The notes under the pieces are model-generated. The model was not told where the DNA came from. It was given only the letters and a program-made list of their open reading frames with translations, and made no database searches. Made by a program: the position numbers and the translations under genes. From Bdellovibrionales bacterium (GTDB taxonomy: Bacteria; Bdellovibrionota; Bdellovibrionia; Bdellovibrionales; UBA1609), in contig JAPPLG010000014.1 in assembly GCA_028819545.1 (NCBI GenBank), forward strand, positions 81,501-145,500: 64,000 bases of DNA. Direction: 5' to 3'. The first letter of the stretch is position 1; every line of letters begins with the position of its first letter. This document shows, piece by piece, positions 57,655 to 63,902 of the stretch.

Positions 57655-58248
57655 TTAGAACACCTTGATAAGCTCTACTGTAAATATCAGAGTTGAACCT
57701 GGCGGTATACTTGAAATACCCTCACGGTTACCATAGGCTAAATGGCTTGGAATGTAAAATTCATAAGTGGCTCCCTCTTTCATCAACTGAACTCCCTCTG
57801 TCCAGCCTGGAATCACTTGATCCAAAGGAAACTTGGCCGTTTCATTTCTCTTATAAGAACTGTCAAACTCTGTTCCGTCAATAAGAGTGCCTTTATAATG
57901 CACTTCCACCATAGATTGAGGCCCTGGTGATTTACCGGCGCCTTCTTTTATAACTTTATACTGAAGGCCTGAAGCAGTTGTTTTCACCCCTTCTTTATCC
58001 TTATTTTGATTCAAAAACTCCACTTGAGCAGACACTGGATTCTCCCTTACAGACTGTACCGCCTGTTCACTTTCATTATTATTTGATTCTGATGAAGAGT
58101 CACTTAATGCAGGTTCTGTTTCTGAAGAAAAACCAAACCACTTCTTAAGAGCATCACAAGAAACCAAGGTCAGACACAACATAAGACCTATGACAATTTT
58201 AGTGACCTTCACAATAAATACCTCATACACATGGATAAAATATCTCAA
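57655..58248 (-). CDS. FKBP-type peptidyl-prolyl isomerase (lipoprotein, Mip/FkpA-like)
   Basis: SGLQY, VHYKGTLIDGTEFDSS, VIPGWTEG, LAYG, TLIFTVEL; LVSC lipobox. Confidence 0.95.
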   Translation of the reverse strand: MRYFIHVYEVFIVKVTKIVIGLMLCLTLVSCDALKKWFGFSSETEPALSDSSSESNNNESEQAVQSVRENPVSAQVEFLNQNKDKEGVKTTASGLQYKVIKEGAGKSPGPQSMVEVHYKGTLIDGTEFDSSYKRNETAKFPLDQVIPGWTEGVQLMKEGATYEFYIPSHLAYGNREGISSIPPGSTLIFTVELIKVF

Positions 58249-58257
58249 TTGATTTTG

Positions 58258-59334
58258 TCAAACCTTTCTAAGATTAGAACACTGCTGAATAAAACGATCA
58301 AATAGAAATACAGAGTCTTCAGGGCCCGGATGATTTTCAGGATGAAACTGTACGGCCAGGATTTTTTTATTTTCAGAGAAAAACCCCTGAATTGTCTGAT
58401 CATTTAAATTCACATGAGTGACTTGCACATCTGAGGGTAAAGACCCTTCTACAATGACATACCCATGATTTTGACTGGTAATATAGATTTGATCATGCAG
58501 TAAATCTTTAACAGGATGATTCACTCCCCGGTGACCAAACTTTAACTTTCTGGTTTTACCCCCCAAAGCTAAAGCCAATATTTGACAGCCCATACAAATT
58601 CCAAACATAAAGTATCGTCCTATTAAACTTTTCACTGTATCCACCGCCACTTGAACATAAGCAGGATCCCCCGGCCCATTACTCAGTAAAATGCCATCAG
58701 GCTTCCAGGCCTCTATATCTTCAATTGTTGCTCTGGAAGGAAAAACTTTAACTTCAGAACATCTCTGAAATAATTCTCGTAAGATATTATTTTTACACCC
58801 AAAATCCAACACAGCCATACGAGGTCCACCAGGTATTTTCCCTTTATGCACAGTAGGTTTGGAGGTCGAAATTAAATAGGGCCAGTCTTTTTCTTTTGAT
58901 TTAGATTTTTGAATTAAAGCTTGAGCCTTCTTTTGAGCTGTATCTTCAGAATCCGCTGAAACAATAGCGCCGTAAATAGAACCATGATTTCTTAAGGTTA
59001 AAGTTAAAAGACGAGTATCCACTCCATCCAACACAGGAACCGAGTGTCGAATCAATTTATCTTTCCAGGAAACATCTCTAGGGGAATTTTGCATCTTTAA
59101 ACATATCAATCCTTCAATCCAAATATTGTCTGACTCCCAATAAGCATCACTTTCAGAATAATTACCCTGATGAGGAGCTGTCATGACAACAATTTGAGAA
59201 AAATAAGAAGGATCCGTAGCCACTTCCTCATAACCGCTATGAGCTGTGTTAAAAACCACCTCACCTGCTTTTTCCCCGCCGCCTAAGTGATGACCTGGAA
59301 AAAGCTGTCCTGTCTCTAAAACAAGAAAAGCCAC
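58258..59334 (-). CDS. carA: Carbamoyl-phosphate synthase small subunit
   Basis: GEVVFNT, TDPSY, SNGPGDP, GICMG.Q, SQNHG, QFHPE. Confidence 0.97.
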   Translation of the reverse strand: MAFLVLETGQLFPGHHLGGGEKAGEVVFNTAHSGYEEVATDPSYFSQIVVMTAPHQGNYSESDAYWESDNIWIEGLICLKMQNSPRDVSWKDKLIRHSVPVLDGVDTRLLTLTLRNHGSIYGAIVSADSEDTAQKKAQALIQKSKSKEKDWPYLISTSKPTVHKGKIPGGPRMAVLDFGCKNNILRELFQRCSEVKVFPSRATIEDIEAWKPDGILLSNGPGDPAYVQVAVDTVKSLIGRYFMFGICMGCQILALALGGKTRKLKFGHRGVNHPVKDLLHDQIYITSQNHGYVIVEGSLPSDVQVTHVNLNDQTIQGFFSENKKILAVQFHPENHPGPEDSVFLFDRFIQQCSNLRKV

Positions 59335-60273
59335 TTAAACCTTTAAATCCAAAATTAAACTAAGCAAAGCCAACCGAACATAAAGTCCATTTTCAACCTG
59401 ATTCAAAATACGGCAACGAGAATCCCTAAGGGCAAAATTAGAGATCTCCACTCCTCGAATTGCAGGCCCGGGGTGTAAAATAATCCCCTCCGGAGAGAAA
59501 ATATTGACCTGATCATAACCAATACGAAACTTATCCCTATACTCTGCAACAGAAAAACCAATAGAGCCCAGAAGATCTCCGTGTCTTTCCTCCTGAACAC
59601 GAAGAGACACCAACACTGTTGCCCACTTAACCCCTTCATTAAGTTCATCAAAGTTTTTAAAATTCTTCCATACCTCATTTCTTGGAGCTAAACCTTTTGG
59701 AGAGCAATAGGCCACCTCAGCTCCCAAGCGAGACAATAGTTTTACATTGGAGTGCGCCACTCGAGAGTGAAGCACATCCCCTACAATGAGAACGCGCTCC
59801 CCTTTAATCTGCCCCCTATCTTCCAAAATAGTTAAAGCATCTGACAAAGACTGGGAAGGATGTGACTGAGTACCCAAGCCTGCATTGATTAATGGGATAG
59901 GACTGGATAATAAGTCTTCCATTGGAATTTTAAGTTTTTTAGATCGAAAAATTAAAGCATCCGGTTTTAAAGCTTTTAATATATTAATAGTGTCTTCTAC
60001 CGTCTCCCCTTTAGCAACACTGGATCTGCCGGCACTTAAATAGATTGCTTTAACACCTAAACGGTCACAGGCCGTCTCAAAGCTGACCCTTGTACGTGTA
60101 CTTGGTTCTGTAAAGAATAAATAAACCAGTTTTCTACTGGCTTTAGTGGAATCCACCAGCCTGTGAAGTGCCCCGTCTTTAAAGTATTTCTTAAAAACTT
60201 TGGCTAAATCTATGATATCACTAATATGATGATCTTCTAAATTATCAATATCAATCAGAGAACGTCCTAACAT
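59335..60273 (-). CDS. pyrB: Aspartate carbamoyltransferase catalytic subunit
   Basis: EPSTRTRVSFE, KGE, HPSQ, GD..HSRVA.S, RVQEER, HPGP..RG.EI. Confidence 0.96.
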   Translation of the reverse strand: MLGRSLIDIDNLEDHHISDIIDLAKVFKKYFKDGALHRLVDSTKASRKLVYLFFTEPSTRTRVSFETACDRLGVKAIYLSAGRSSVAKGETVEDTINILKALKPDALIFRSKKLKIPMEDLLSSPIPLINAGLGTQSHPSQSLSDALTILEDRGQIKGERVLIVGDVLHSRVAHSNVKLLSRLGAEVAYCSPKGLAPRNEVWKNFKNFDELNEGVKWATVLVSLRVQEERHGDLLGSIGFSVAEYRDKFRIGYDQVNIFSPEGIILHPGPAIRGVEISNFALRDSRCRILNQVENGLYVRLALLSLILDLKV

Positions 60274-60328
60274 AGCTGGAGTATTTTAGAGAAAAGGCGA
60301 AAATTCGTCAACTATTCAATAAGGTCTT

Positions 60329-61081
60329 TTAAGAGTTATCCGGTTTGTCATAAACAGAAGAAAACATTCTCGACCATCTGAAGGTCCAAGGGTAACAAAG
60401 AAGGGGGAGGTTAAAAAGAGTTTTATCACAACTTAGCCAAATACCAACAGCCTGCCCCATTAAATTCTCTGCAGGTAAAAACCCCCAATAACGACTGTCT
60501 TGAGAGTTATTTCTATTGTCTCCCAGTACAAATAAAGAATCTTCCGGCACTGTCAGTTCATAGTTTTGATATGAGTCAATTTTTCTCCATAAAACCTGAT
60601 ATTGGCGAGAATCTAAAAATTCCATATTCATGTCATAATCAGAGACAGCGGCGCCTAAAGCATAGGAGAGGGTTTCATTATTATCCTCATTGTCCATTTC
60701 CAAAGTTTGACTTTGAATTTTGTTGCCATTGATCCATATATTATGATCCTGAATTTTAAGATGATCTCCTGGCAGAGCAATAACTCTCTTGACCATAAAA
60801 TAGGAGCCTTTGGTCGAACGGAAGATAACAATATCCCCTCTCCCGGGCAGAGCTTTTCTCCAAAGCCACTTTTTTGTAAATGGAACACGAAGACCGTAAG
60901 GGTATTTTTTAACAACAATATGATCATAAACCAGAAAGGTTGGAATCATACTGCCTGACGGAATAACGTAGTGGTCTAAAGCAATCCAGCGAAAAAAAAG
61001 AATAAAAAAAACAGCCCCCCAAAAAAAAGACTTGCTATCGTACCACGTACGTAATTTTTTAATAATTTTTTCCGGAATCAA
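60329..61081 (-). CDS. lepB: Signal peptidase I (catalytic Ser/Lys intact)
   Basis: IPSGSM, VKRVIALPGD, GDNRNNSQDSRYWG. Confidence 0.95.
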   Translation of the reverse strand: MIPEKIIKKLRTWYDSKSFFWGAVFFILFFRWIALDHYVIPSGSMIPTFLVYDHIVVKKYPYGLRVPFTKKWLWRKALPGRGDIVIFRSTKGSYFMVKRVIALPGDHLKIQDHNIWINGNKIQSQTLEMDNEDNNETLSYALGAAVSDYDMNMEFLDSRQYQVLWRKIDSYQNYELTVPEDSLFVLGDNRNNSQDSRYWGFLPAENLMGQAVGIWLSCDKTLFNLPLLCYPWTFRWSRMFSSVYDKPDNS

Positions 61082-62091
61082 TCAATTCTCCTTTTTTTAT
61101 GAACAGGCCAATACCATCTCTGCTTTCTAAAAGAATCAAACTGGCATAAAAATTTCAAAATAGGAAGTGTTGTCTCACAGCCCCATAAAACAACCATTGC
61201 CCGTCCCTTGATAGAATGAAGGGGAATAAGACTTTTATCTTGCCCTCCAGAAAATTCTTTTTCATTACTGACCTTTACTTGAGAGTGTAAAAGCCCCTCA
61301 ATCTTCCACTTGGAATTTTTTTCTACATGAGCTGTTAACCCCGGCTCAAGAGCTTTGACTTTGACACTCACTGAAGAGTTTTCCAGAACAACAGCTGTCA
61401 GTGTTTCAAAACGAATAGGAAAATAAGGATCTTCATCCACATATACGATTGTACCCTTTGGAATGATGACTTTCTCAAATTTTGATTGTTTTTTAAAGGT
61501 GACAATGCCCCCCGCAATCCTGGCATGAATAGGCCAAGTACGGGAATCCCTGGATTGAGAGCGATGATCCCCCATTACAAAATAATGTCCCTTAGGAATT
61601 TTATAAGGCCCAAATGAAATATCTTCTTCCTTTTTTCTTAAAACACTATAAGGTCCGGCAGACAACTCCTCCTGCCAATGCACATAATTATTTAAACCGC
61701 CCGTCTCATTTTCACCTGGAAAATCAAATGGCCTTAAAAATCCCCACTCTTGTTTCACCTCTAAAGGGGGTTGAGGTTTATACATTTTCTCATTGATAAA
61801 TAAAACACCTTTGGAATAAAACACACGATCTCCTGGAAGTCCTATTATTCTTTTAAACATGAGATGATGGGGATGTTGCGGCTCTTCCAACAGCACAACT
61901 TCACCTCTTTGAGGCTGTTTCCATACCTGCCAATAACGTTTAAAAACATTCAACCCATAGACTTGCTTCTGCACCCAAAGATAATCACCTGTAAGTAAAG
62001 TCGGAGCCATGTCTGATGTGGAAACCTGATAAGGCTCCAGAATAAATCGAATGCACAAAGCCAATAAAACAAAAGTAACAGACTTTTTCAT
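61078..62091 (-). CDS. Signal peptidase I-like protein lacking the catalytic Ser, with a baseplate-J-like insertion
   Basis: VSTSDMAPTL in place of IPSGSM; KRIIGLPGD; GDHRSQSRDSR; ~97-aa insert before IKGRA. Confidence 0.85.
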   Translation of the reverse strand: MKKSVTFVLLALCIRFILEPYQVSTSDMAPTLLTGDYLWVQKQVYGLNVFKRYWQVWKQPQRGEVVLLEEPQHPHHLMFKRIIGLPGDRVFYSKGVLFINEKMYKPQPPLEVKQEWGFLRPFDFPGENETGGLNNYVHWQEELSAGPYSVLRKKEEDISFGPYKIPKGHYFVMGDHRSQSRDSRTWPIHARIAGGIVTFKKQSKFEKVIIPKGTIVYVDEDPYFPIRFETLTAVVLENSSVSVKVKALEPGLTAHVEKNSKWKIEGLLHSQVKVSNEKEFSGGQDKSLIPLHSIKGRAMVVLWGCETTLPILKFLCQFDSFRKQRWYWPVHKKRRID

Positions 62092-63902
62092 TCACCCGAT
62101 TTCAAAACAGCCATAAATGCTTCCTGAGGAATAGAAACTTTTCCAAATTCTTTCATTCTCTTTTTTCCCCTTTTTTGTTTTTCAAGAAGTTTTCTTTTTC
62201 GAGTCACATCTCCTCCATAGAGTTTGGCAGTCACATCTTTTCTATAAGCACTGATCGTCTCACGAGCAATAATTCTTCCTCCAATAGCCGCCTGCACAGC
62301 AATAGGGTATTGTTGTCGAGGAATGATCTTTTTTAGCCGCTTAACAATATCTCTTCCGCGAAATAAAGACTTTTCCTTATGAGCAATAAGAGACAAAGCA
62401 TCCAAAACTTCTCCGTTCAATAAAATATCCAACTTCACCAAATGAGATTCCTGATATCCCTCCCACTCATACTCCATAGAAGCATATCCCCTGGAAACAG
62501 ATTTTAATTGATCATGAAAGTCAGTCACCACTTCAGCTAAAGGAATGCGATACTCTATGATCACACGGTCTTTGGCCAAATATTCCATTCGGACCTGCTC
62601 TCCTCTATTATGTTCACAAAGTTTTAAAACAGCTCCAATAGACTCGGATGGAGTATGAATGGAAAGACGAACAAAGGGCTCTTTCATTTTTTCTATTTTT
62701 GAAAAATCAGGAAGATGAGAAGGGTTTTCAATTTCCTCCACTTGGCCGTTGGTTAAAAACACCTGATAAATTACACTGGGGGCAGTGACCACAAGATTGA
62801 GGTTAAATTCTCTTTCCAAACGTTCCTGAACAATTTCAAGGTGCAGAAGGCCTAAAAACCCACATCGAAACCCAAACCCCAAAGCAGGAGAAGTTTCCAT
62901 ATCAAAAACAAGAGCTGAATCATTTAAAGAAAGTTTTTCCAAAGCTTTTTTTAAATGAGCAAAATCATCCGAACTGATTGGGTAAACTCCTGAGTACACC
63001 ATAGGTTTTAATTGTTTAAACCCCGCCAGCGGCTCTTCTGCAGGATGATTTTTATGAGTTAAAGTGTCTCCAACCCGAATTTGTTTAATATCCTTAATTC
63101 CGCATATAATAAAACCCACCTCTCCTTGAGACAGCTCTTTCTTGGAAACCACATAAGGAGAAAAAATTCCCATCTTTAAAACTTCACATTCCAATTGAGA
63201 GCCCATAAACCGAACAGCGTCCCCTTGTTTAATTTTACCGTCTTTAATACGACAAAGAGCCACCACTCCCTGGTAAGAGTCAAACCAGGAATCAAAGACT
63301 AAGGCCCTCAAATAATCTTCAGAAGAAGAGCTGGGGGGAGGAATCTTTTCAACAACAGCAGATAAGATCTGCTCCAGTCCCTGTCCGGTTTTAGCACTGA
63401 TTTCCAAAATCTCATCTTCTTGAAACCCCATTAAGTCCATCAATTGTTTTTTACATTGCGGAACATCCGCTGAAGGCAGATCCACTTTATTCAAAACAGG
63501 AATAATTTTTAAATTCCCCTCCAAAGCCAAGTAGGCATGAGCCAGAGTCTGAGCCTCCACTCCCTGACTGGCGTCCACCACCAACAAAACTCCCTCGCAG
63601 GCACTTAAAGACCTGGAAACTTCATAAGAAAAATCCACATGTCCCGGTGTATCTATAAGATTTAGTTGATAAATTTGTTGATCCTGATGTGTGTAACTCA
63701 AGCAGACAGTCTGAGCTTTAATGGTAATGCCCCTTTCTCTTTCAATATCCATACTGTCCAAGTACTGGGATTTTTTATCCCTTTCTTCAACAGCTCCCGT
63801 CAAACTCATCAACCCATCTGCCAAGGTAGACTTGCCATGATCAATATGAGCAATAATAGAAAAATTTCGAATATTTTGAACACTCATTCCTTTTGACTCC
63901 AT
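62088..63902 (-). CDS. lepA: Elongation factor 4 (LepA)
   Basis: IRNFSIIAHIDHGKSTL, ERERGITIK, IDTPGHVDF, NKVD, RKDVTAK.YGGD. Confidence 0.98.
   Translation of the reverse strand: MESKGMSVQNIRNFSIIAHIDHGKSTLADGLMSLTGAVEERDKKSQYLDSMDIERERGITIKAQTVCLSYTHQDQQIYQLNLIDTPGHVDFSYEVSRSLSACEGVLLVVDASQGVEAQTLAHAYLALEGNLKIIPVLNKVDLPSADVPQCKKQLMDLMGFQEDEILEISAKTGQGLEQILSAVVEKIPPPSSSSEDYLRALVFDSWFDSYQGVVALCRIKDGKIKQGDAVRFMGSQLECEVLKMGIFSPYVVSKKELSQGEVGFIICGIKDIKQIRVGDTLTHKNHPAEEPLAGFKQLKPMVYSGVYPISSDDFAHLKKALEKLSLNDSALVFDMETSPALGFGFRCGFLGLLHLEIVQERLEREFNLNLVVTAPSVIYQVFLTNGQVEEIENPSHLPDFSKIEKMKEPFVRLSIHTPSESIGAVLKLCEHNRGEQVRMEYLAKDRVIIEYRIPLAEVVTDFHDQLKSVSRGYASMEYEWEGYQESHLVKLDILLNGEVLDALSLIAHKEKSLFRGRDIVKRLKKIIPRQQYPIAVQAAIGGRIIARETISAYRKDVTAKLYGGDVTRKRKLLEKQKRGKKRMKEFGKVSIPQEAFMAVLKSGE

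Follow-up and report, generated by a model that had tools for sequence, protein, structure and literature searches.

Bacteria depend on signal peptidase I, which is also a target for antibiotics. Its non-catalytic relatives have, to our knowledge, so far been found mainly in Gram-positive pilus systems (SipA). Here we analyse a paralogue of this enzyme from a Gram-negative, Bdellovibrio-like bacterium, encoded in a stretch of 64,000 nucleotides (Bdellovibrionales bacterium, GenBank assembly GCA_028819545.1, contig JAPPLG010000014.1, positions 81,501 to 145,500; hereafter the window), which has lost the catalytic serine and carries a β-barrel of the type found in phage baseplate proteins. We refer to this protein as dead LepB, and to the canonical, active-looking signal peptidase encoded next to it as LepB2. 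Streptococcus pyogenes SipA is reported to be a protein in which Ser is exchanged for Asp and Lys for Gly, with the cleft kept and peptidase activity absent, and without which pilus polymerisation fails, although the Asp as such can be dispensed with (PMC4049620).

A signal peptidase fold without its nucleophile

Dead LepB is readily recognised as a member of the S26 family. Pfam matches Peptidase_S26 to residues 5-187 (E 2.3e-33), the PF10502 score of 115.9 bits lies far above the cut-off of 22.9, and the NCBIfam equivalog for signal peptidase I, TIGR02227, is passed with 109.5 bits against a cut-off of 47, so that annotation pipelines will name the protein an ordinary LepB. An AlphaFold2 (AF2) model built on 35 relatives (pLDDT 84.9, pTM 0.82) aligns to E. 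coli LepB (1b12_D) with a Z-score of 17.4 over 182 residues at 29% identity (VIA-align), and to SipA (4n31_A) with a Z-score of 12.6. A helix is predicted at the N-terminus, and by analogy with LepB the protein would be anchored there and face the periplasm.

The reading frame, its box B sequence VSTSDM and the GAC codon within it are as the initial annotation had claimed. In a profile alignment with the E. coli enzyme, Asp27 falls without a gap on Ser90 of PSGSMMPTL, and dead LepB is thus a protein without the S26 nucleophile. The other motifs said to be kept are also in place, with Lys80 in box D (FKRIIGLPGD) and, in box E (GDHRSQSRDSRTW), the pattern GDNR...S.DSR preserved as GDHRSQSRDSR; the exchange of N for H in this motif goes along with Ser loss in the genera g1 and g22 of the survey below. 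At the positions that we take, from the signal peptidase literature, to line the S1 and S3 pockets of the E. coli enzyme, the profile alignment shows that hydrophobic character is maintained (F84>Y, I86>V, M91=M, L95=L, I101>L, V132>L, I144>F).

A sequencing or assembly error at codon 27 can be ruled out. A Logan contig is identical to the window over positions 60300-62200 at a depth of 39, with no Ser codon at 62011-62013; it stems from X1, a DNA run of a sponge metagenome, the sole public run with this stretch and probably the source sample, and is therefore not independent; no RNA run with the stretch was listed. D or E, however, recurs at this position among relatives from other assemblies.

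The insert is a baseplate J barrel

Directly behind box E, dead LepB carries an insert of 97 residues, which had been taken for the β-barrel of Baseplate_J proteins, an identification that profile and structure searches bear out. Pfam Baseplate_J (PF04865, HMM positions 20-111 of 255) matches residues 190-285 with 24.7 bits in the context of the whole protein and with 28.4 bits for the insert alone, both above the cut-off of 21.1 bits, and a profile of the dead LepB family matches the phage baseplate chains 9euf_C (E 3.1e-6) and 9g8s_C (E 1.4e-5) in the PDB. Residues 189-285 of the AF2 model superimpose on residues 86-181 of phiCD508 gp65 with a Z-score of 14.0 and an rmsd of 1.9 Å over 93 residues, at 32% identity. 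Further matches in this comparison are phage Mu gp47 (Z 13.2), diffocin (12.9), phi812 (12.7), AFP (10.1) and T4 gp6 (9.4), and a P1 baseplate chain aligns as well; EF-Tu-type barrels reach no more than about Z 6. A Foldseek search of BFVD returned 23 matches at E<=1e-3, nearly all of them named baseplate J, and an Atlas structure search agrees (TM 0.75-0.84). Within the same phylum, a true baseplate J protein of 390 residues (L099), part of a gpW-J-I module in another family, is hit by the insert profile (E 5e-15). We conclude that the inserted segment is a genuine barrel of the Baseplate_J type and that no other part of a baseplate J protein is present.

Two occurrences of this barrel in other proteins deserve more detail. 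L099 (G513:C4:19731-23012) has identical matches on C9 and C11, giving three copies of a tail baseplate module that consists of a gpW/gp25-like gene (133 residues), the baseplate J gene (390 residues) and then a gene of 176 residues; among true baseplate proteins, its barrel comes closest to the LepB insert profile. The same type of barrel also occurs, at about residues 210-310, in a large protein family whose members measure about 490-530 residues (P0128 and about 80 further clusters, e.g. P0137, P0140, P0186). There it is preceded by a predicted membrane segment, and neither Pfam nor NCBIfam matches anything else in these proteins. These proteins are annotated 'hypothetical protein'; one stems from an Anaerolineae metagenome-assembled genome and another, P0255, has a RuvX domain at its C-terminus. 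They represent a second non-phage context for the barrel, which is apparently extracytoplasmic.

Distribution of barrel-bearing LepBs

We surveyed 109 genomes, representing 35 genera, of one Bdellovibrionales-like family, together with a sample of 401 genomes from the phylum. S26 genes are present in 107 of the 109 family genomes, in one to five copies each that are commonly arranged in tandem; the window genome (1.45 Mb, 95% complete) has exactly two, dead LepB and LepB2. With a profile of the insert (A3, built from 12 sequences), we detected a barrel-bearing LepB in 25 of the family genomes, one per genome, belonging to six of the 35 genera: g1 (4/4 genomes, the window genome included), g22 (13/15), g16 (3/4), g17 (3/3), g23 (1/1) and g83 (1/1). 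Outside the family, no barrel-bearing LepB was found in the 401-genome phylum sample, the other matches being the true baseplate J protein described above and short partial matches in open reading frames (ORFs) of about 2070 residues in one other genus. The suggestion that the insert is a feature of a lineage, not unique to this genome, was therefore correct, but the lineage comprises part of one family, not Bdellovibrionota as a whole. At 24 of the 25 loci lepA lies directly upstream of the barrel-bearing gene; at the remaining one (L125), no match to the lepA recognition motif was obtained.

Two long matches in named genomes (L004, L005) proved to be ordinary LepBs in tandem, and no named genome with a long, i.e. 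barrel-bearing, form is among the matches listed. The nearest named matches among them, in a Bdellovibrionales and a Pseudobdellovibrio metagenome-assembled genome, are the sole basis of our taxon assignment. Some of the larger genomes in the family, from genus g6 and others, contain two S26 matches within a single open frame of 488-554 residues (e.g. G044:C21:148413-149825, G239:C214:829-2217, G237:C8:81929-83359), which points to LepB-LepB fusion proteins or to tandem genes that share a frame with no stop between them.

Insertion preceded the loss of the serine

The initial annotation had proposed to look for co-occurrence of the insert and Ser loss. The two are not strictly linked, and the Lys seen in the window protein is not conserved throughout the Ser-less clade. 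Seven of the 25 barrel-bearing genomes (three g17, g23, g83 and two g16) retain Ser, Lys and GDNR alike, and the insert therefore preceded the loss of the nucleophile and was compatible with an active-looking enzyme. The Ser is absent from the other 18 genomes, which measure 1.3-2.6 Mb, its place being taken by D or E in g1, by G, E, D or A in g22 and by G in one g16 genome.

Counted over 43 distinct long forms, the pair of residues at the nucleophile and general-base positions is S/K in seven, E/K in 11, D/K in two, E/R in six, D/R in four, Q/R in two, G/R in nine, G/K in one and E/S in one. The 36 Ser-less forms thus have K at the base position in 14 cases, R in 21 and S in one. Covariation of an acidic nucleophile site with a basic base site, as a signature of a salt bridge, is not clear-cut, with G/R, G/K and E/S pairs occurring too.

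For a gene tree (quick IQ-TREE, 76 rows) we used the S26 columns without those of the insert, leaving out three N-terminally truncated fragments. The Ser-less forms nest within Bdellovibrionales-type LepBs as one clade of 39 rows (SH-aLRT 97, or 90 with the long-branched L090), which includes a g1-type subclade of 27 rows with a support of 100. Within this Ser-less clade, Lys at the base position is confined to a crown clade of 16 rows that includes the window protein; Arg is found in the basal members and in the g22-type clade, and once more inside the crown clade, in P0006. The active-looking long forms remain unresolved among the short LepBs, and a grouping of all 47 long forms with P0039, corresponding to one common origin of the long forms and defined by the trait after the tree had been seen, is not rejected (AU p 0.5). 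P0039 itself is a short LepB of 262 residues with G/R at the two sites and just 12-13 residues in place of the barrel; it lies inside the g22-type Ser-less clade and apparently reflects either a later loss of the insert or truncation of the gene call.

Selective constraint

Dead LepB is under purifying selection. Between the window genome and three congeners (G190, G186 and G172), NG86 estimates of dN/dS were 0.16, 0.12 and 0.25 for dead LepB, 0.08, not computable and 0.23 for LepB2, and 0.04, 0.05 and 0.07 for the LepA C-terminus, values that are approximate because dS, at 1.0-2.1 and not computable for one pair, approaches saturation. The N-terminal S26 part of dead LepB is 81% identical to its G190 orthologue, as is LepB2, and the barrel 61%. 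Over 35 long forms, 35 columns are invariant, taking in most of boxes B-E and a Cys pair near the C-terminus, and the gene is retained as one of just two S26 genes in genomes of 1.3-1.5 Mb. Constrained scaffold and cleft motifs combined with free catalytic positions fit the pattern of a pseudoenzyme.

Gene layout

The order lepA, dead LepB, LepB2 is translationally coupled (Table 1). Of the two ATGA overlaps originally described, the first is present, the ATG start of dead LepB overlapping the lepA stop; the second reads TTGA, the TGA stop of dead LepB overlapping a TTG start of LepB2, with GGAG 6 nt upstream. LepB2 has no in-frame ATG ahead of box B, so its start must be the TTG at 61081-61079. 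In two congeners the orthologous gene begins with ATG, and its overlap with the gene before it is 11 nt long. Three ORFs on the same strand, at 57655-60273 of the window, lie 3' of the lepB pair and resemble pyrB, carA and an FKBP-type isomerase.

Table 1. Genes and sequence features at the lepA-lepB locus (window positions; aa, amino acids)
Feature	Position	Strand	Basis
lepA (EF4 GTPase), 604 aa	62088..63902	(-)	ORF and translation
Dead LepB, barrel-bearing, nucleophile-less LepB paralogue, 337 aa	61078..62091	(-)	Pfam, TIGR02227, AF2
Predicted N-terminal membrane anchor, aa 2-17, KKSVTFVLLALCIRFI	62041..62088	(-)	Predicted helix 2-17; basic N-terminus, then hydrophobic run
Codon GAC, Asp27 at the catalytic Ser position (E. 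coli Ser90)	62011..62013	(-)	Profile alignment
Codon AAA, Lys80 at the general-base position (E. coli Lys145), box D FKRIIGLPGD	61852..61854	(-)	Alignment
Box E, GDHRSQSRDSRTW, aa 174-186	61534..61572	(-)	Alignment
Inserted Baseplate_J-type β-barrel, 97 aa, aa 189-285, after box E	61237..61527	(-)	Pfam, PDB profile, fold
C-terminal S26 strands, invariant Cys pair (C305, C316), basic tail, aa 289-337	61081..61227	(-)	Invariant columns; aligned to E. coli LepB C-terminus
LepB2, canonical, active-looking lepB, 250 aa	60329..61081	(-)	Motifs IPSGSM, VKRVIALPGD, GDNRNNSQDSR
pyrB-like ORF	59335..60273	(-)	By eye from translation
carA-like ORF, GTG start	58258..59334	(-)	By eye from translation
FKBP-type isomerase-like ORF	57655..58248	(-)	By eye from translation

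Discussion

What might a signal peptidase do that has given up its nucleophile and acquired part of a phage baseplate? The reading that we favour, and to which we give somewhat better than even chances, is that dead LepB is a SipA-like, non-catalytic binder of peptides or proteins, anchored in the inner membrane, facing the periplasm and equipped with a docking barrel. Its retained cleft would bind extended peptide segments of exported proteins, resembling signal peptides or cleavage regions, while the barrel would be a module for docking to a partner protein in the periplasm. A docking surface is the simplest role for the barrel, as it is the faster-evolving part of the protein and was already present in active-looking forms.

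The most economical history that we can propose for such a protein has four steps. It would have begun with a tandem lepB pair following lepA, with dead LepB descending from the first copy. The barrel of a phage or contractile injection system baseplate J protein (gp47/gp6/Tri1-type) would then have been inserted just past box E of this copy while it was still intact. Subsequently, the Ser nucleophile would have been replaced in the small-genome genera, by Asp in the case of the window protein, and finally the general-base position would have been freed, allowing residues to exchange there.

Several points weigh against the idea of a non-catalytic periplasmic binder. Our analysis identified neither a binding partner nor a substrate of dead LepB, and the neighbouring genes lepA, lepB, pyrB and carA offer no clue to its function. 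In the AF2 model, box E and the linker (residues 178-188) have a pLDDT below 50. With the exception of P0006, all crown-clade members examined have kept the Lys, and some residual or altered chemistry may therefore persist. Finally, a cleft-occluding mutation in SipA is reported to have left function in place (PMC4049620), so that, on that account, peptide binding is an unproven mechanism even for the precedent.

The proposal of a periplasmic binder can be taken further, to a version that we regard as rather unlikely in its full extent. Here dead LepB would be an export-sorting factor of a new kind, in which the disabled cleft captures some of the Sec or Tat substrates at the cleavage region and the domesticated barrel hands them to, or holds them at, a periplasmic or outer-membrane assembly that these genome-reduced Bdellovibrionales need for a host-associated or predatory lifestyle. 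If this were true, a housekeeping protease and a phage structural module would have been fused into a non-enzymatic secretion adaptor.

A different role, and in our view a fairly doubtful one, would be that of an obligate non-catalytic subunit or regulator of LepB2, the two forming a heterodimer in which the dead copy selects or presents substrates. Such a partnership would agree with the translational coupling in the order lepA-lepB'-lepB, with the presence of an active LepB next to the Ser-less gene at 13 of the 18 Ser-less loci, and with the finding that just one other S26 gene is present in all g1 genomes and in almost all of those in g22. However, the active LepB is located elsewhere in the genome in four of the 18 cases (in the last, the gene is at a contig edge), and because tandem lepB pairs are ancestral in the family, adjacency would be inherited and is not evidence of partnership. 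In addition, bacterial signal peptidase I enzymes are described as monomers. A complex prediction for LepB2 and dead LepB, each entered as an alignment, gave a score of 0.01 (mark 0.32) and was not used as evidence.

Catalysis could also have survived in another guise, dead LepB working as a peptidase or a transpeptidase by a non-canonical chemistry, e.g. through Ser26 of the S-D-M sequence or through Asp27, together with Lys80. Lys80 is indeed retained in the window protein and its counterpart in most of the crown clade, most g1-type sequences have a Ser before the D or E (STSD/EM, SNSEM, SSSDM), and the remainder of boxes B-E is intact. We nonetheless consider this improbable. Sister lineages with the same S-[DE]-M sequence carry Arg at the base position (P0006, P0015-P0024), g22-type forms combine Gly with Arg or Ser, and P0018 reads G-Q-M. 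That K and R can be exchanged at this site argues against catalysis, since a general base should not allow it, and an acidic residue beside the Lys would be expected to hold it protonated. SipA, with the same change of Ser to Asp, is reported to be inactive (PMC4049620).

That the barrel docks dead LepB to a surface machine, as was raised at the outset, be it a phage-tail-like particle, a contractile injection system or something else of this kind, has very little to recommend it in this organism. In baseplates the homologous domain is part of the triplex or wedge protein, and in phiCD508 the 'wing domain' of gp65, which may correspond to the barrel, is reported to touch sheath domain III (PMC11948020); yet the 95%-complete window genome yielded no match to GPW_gp25, Phage_sheath_1 or VipB and no second Baseplate_J. 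That dead LepB is merely a decaying, functionless duplicate is hardly credible, for although its catalytic residues are gone and, in the closest comparison, its rate of evolution is roughly double that of LepB2 (dN/dS 0.16 vs 0.08), dN/dS is well under 1, 35 columns are invariant, the 36 distinct Ser-less sequences have intact ORFs, full-length in all 18 Ser-less genomes except G242, where the contig ends inside the gene, and strongly reduced genomes have kept it.

Dead LepB and its relatives constitute a conserved, selected lineage of pseudo-peptidases in Gram-negative, Bdellovibrio-like bacteria, in which the steps of origin are still visible in living relatives, and they show clearly how a structural domain of phages has been domesticated within a housekeeping protein of the periplasm. 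On the practical side, the automatic label 'signal peptidase I' would overstate the number of active LepBs in reduced genomes. The combination of PF04865 with PF10502 already appears in precomputed Pfam columns of databases for several relatives, so the architecture is visible to machines; in a full-text literature search confined to the main articles, we found no published description of a signal peptidase with a Baseplate_J domain. The partner of the barrel could reveal a further step of envelope biogenesis.

Comparison with known systems

With canonical LepB (MEROPS S26A; E. coli LepB, PDB 1b12 and 1t7d), dead LepB shares a homologous catalytic-domain fold, recognisable boxes B-E and the N-terminal anchor, and it sits in a lepA-lepB operon and passes the NCBIfam equivalog. 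It differs in the change of Ser90 to Asp and of GDNR to GDHR, in the variability of the base site across its clade, in the foreign barrel of 97 residues behind box E and in having a canonical LepB next door.

The barrel is the same as that of baseplate J, gp47, T4 gp6 and triplex (Tri1) proteins (PF04865; PDB 9g8s, 9euf, 9ki1, 5iv5, 6rao), to which it aligns with Z-scores of 9.4-14.0 over about 90 residues at up to 32% identity, and its motif pattern is that of the bona fide baseplate J protein L099. Unlike these proteins, dead LepB lacks the N-terminal bundle as well as the middle and C-terminal Baseplate_J domains, and its barrel is embedded in the scaffold of a periplasmic enzyme, flanked by lepA and lepB, outside any tail cluster.

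The nearest counterpart in kind is SipA (also LepA) of S. pyogenes (PDB 4n31, 4k8w), an S26 fold without the nucleophile Ser, in which the same exchange for Asp has occurred and the cleft is retained; in dead LepB, boxes B-E are otherwise conserved. The base site has gone from Lys to Gly in SipA, whereas it varies among K, R and S in the dead LepB clade; SipA, moreover, is a Gram-positive protein encoded in an island with pilus and sortase genes and has no barrel insert. As the Ser-less forms nest within Bdellovibrionales-type LepBs, the loss of the Ser is independent of that in SipA, and dead LepB would be a functional analogue of SipA, not a relative.

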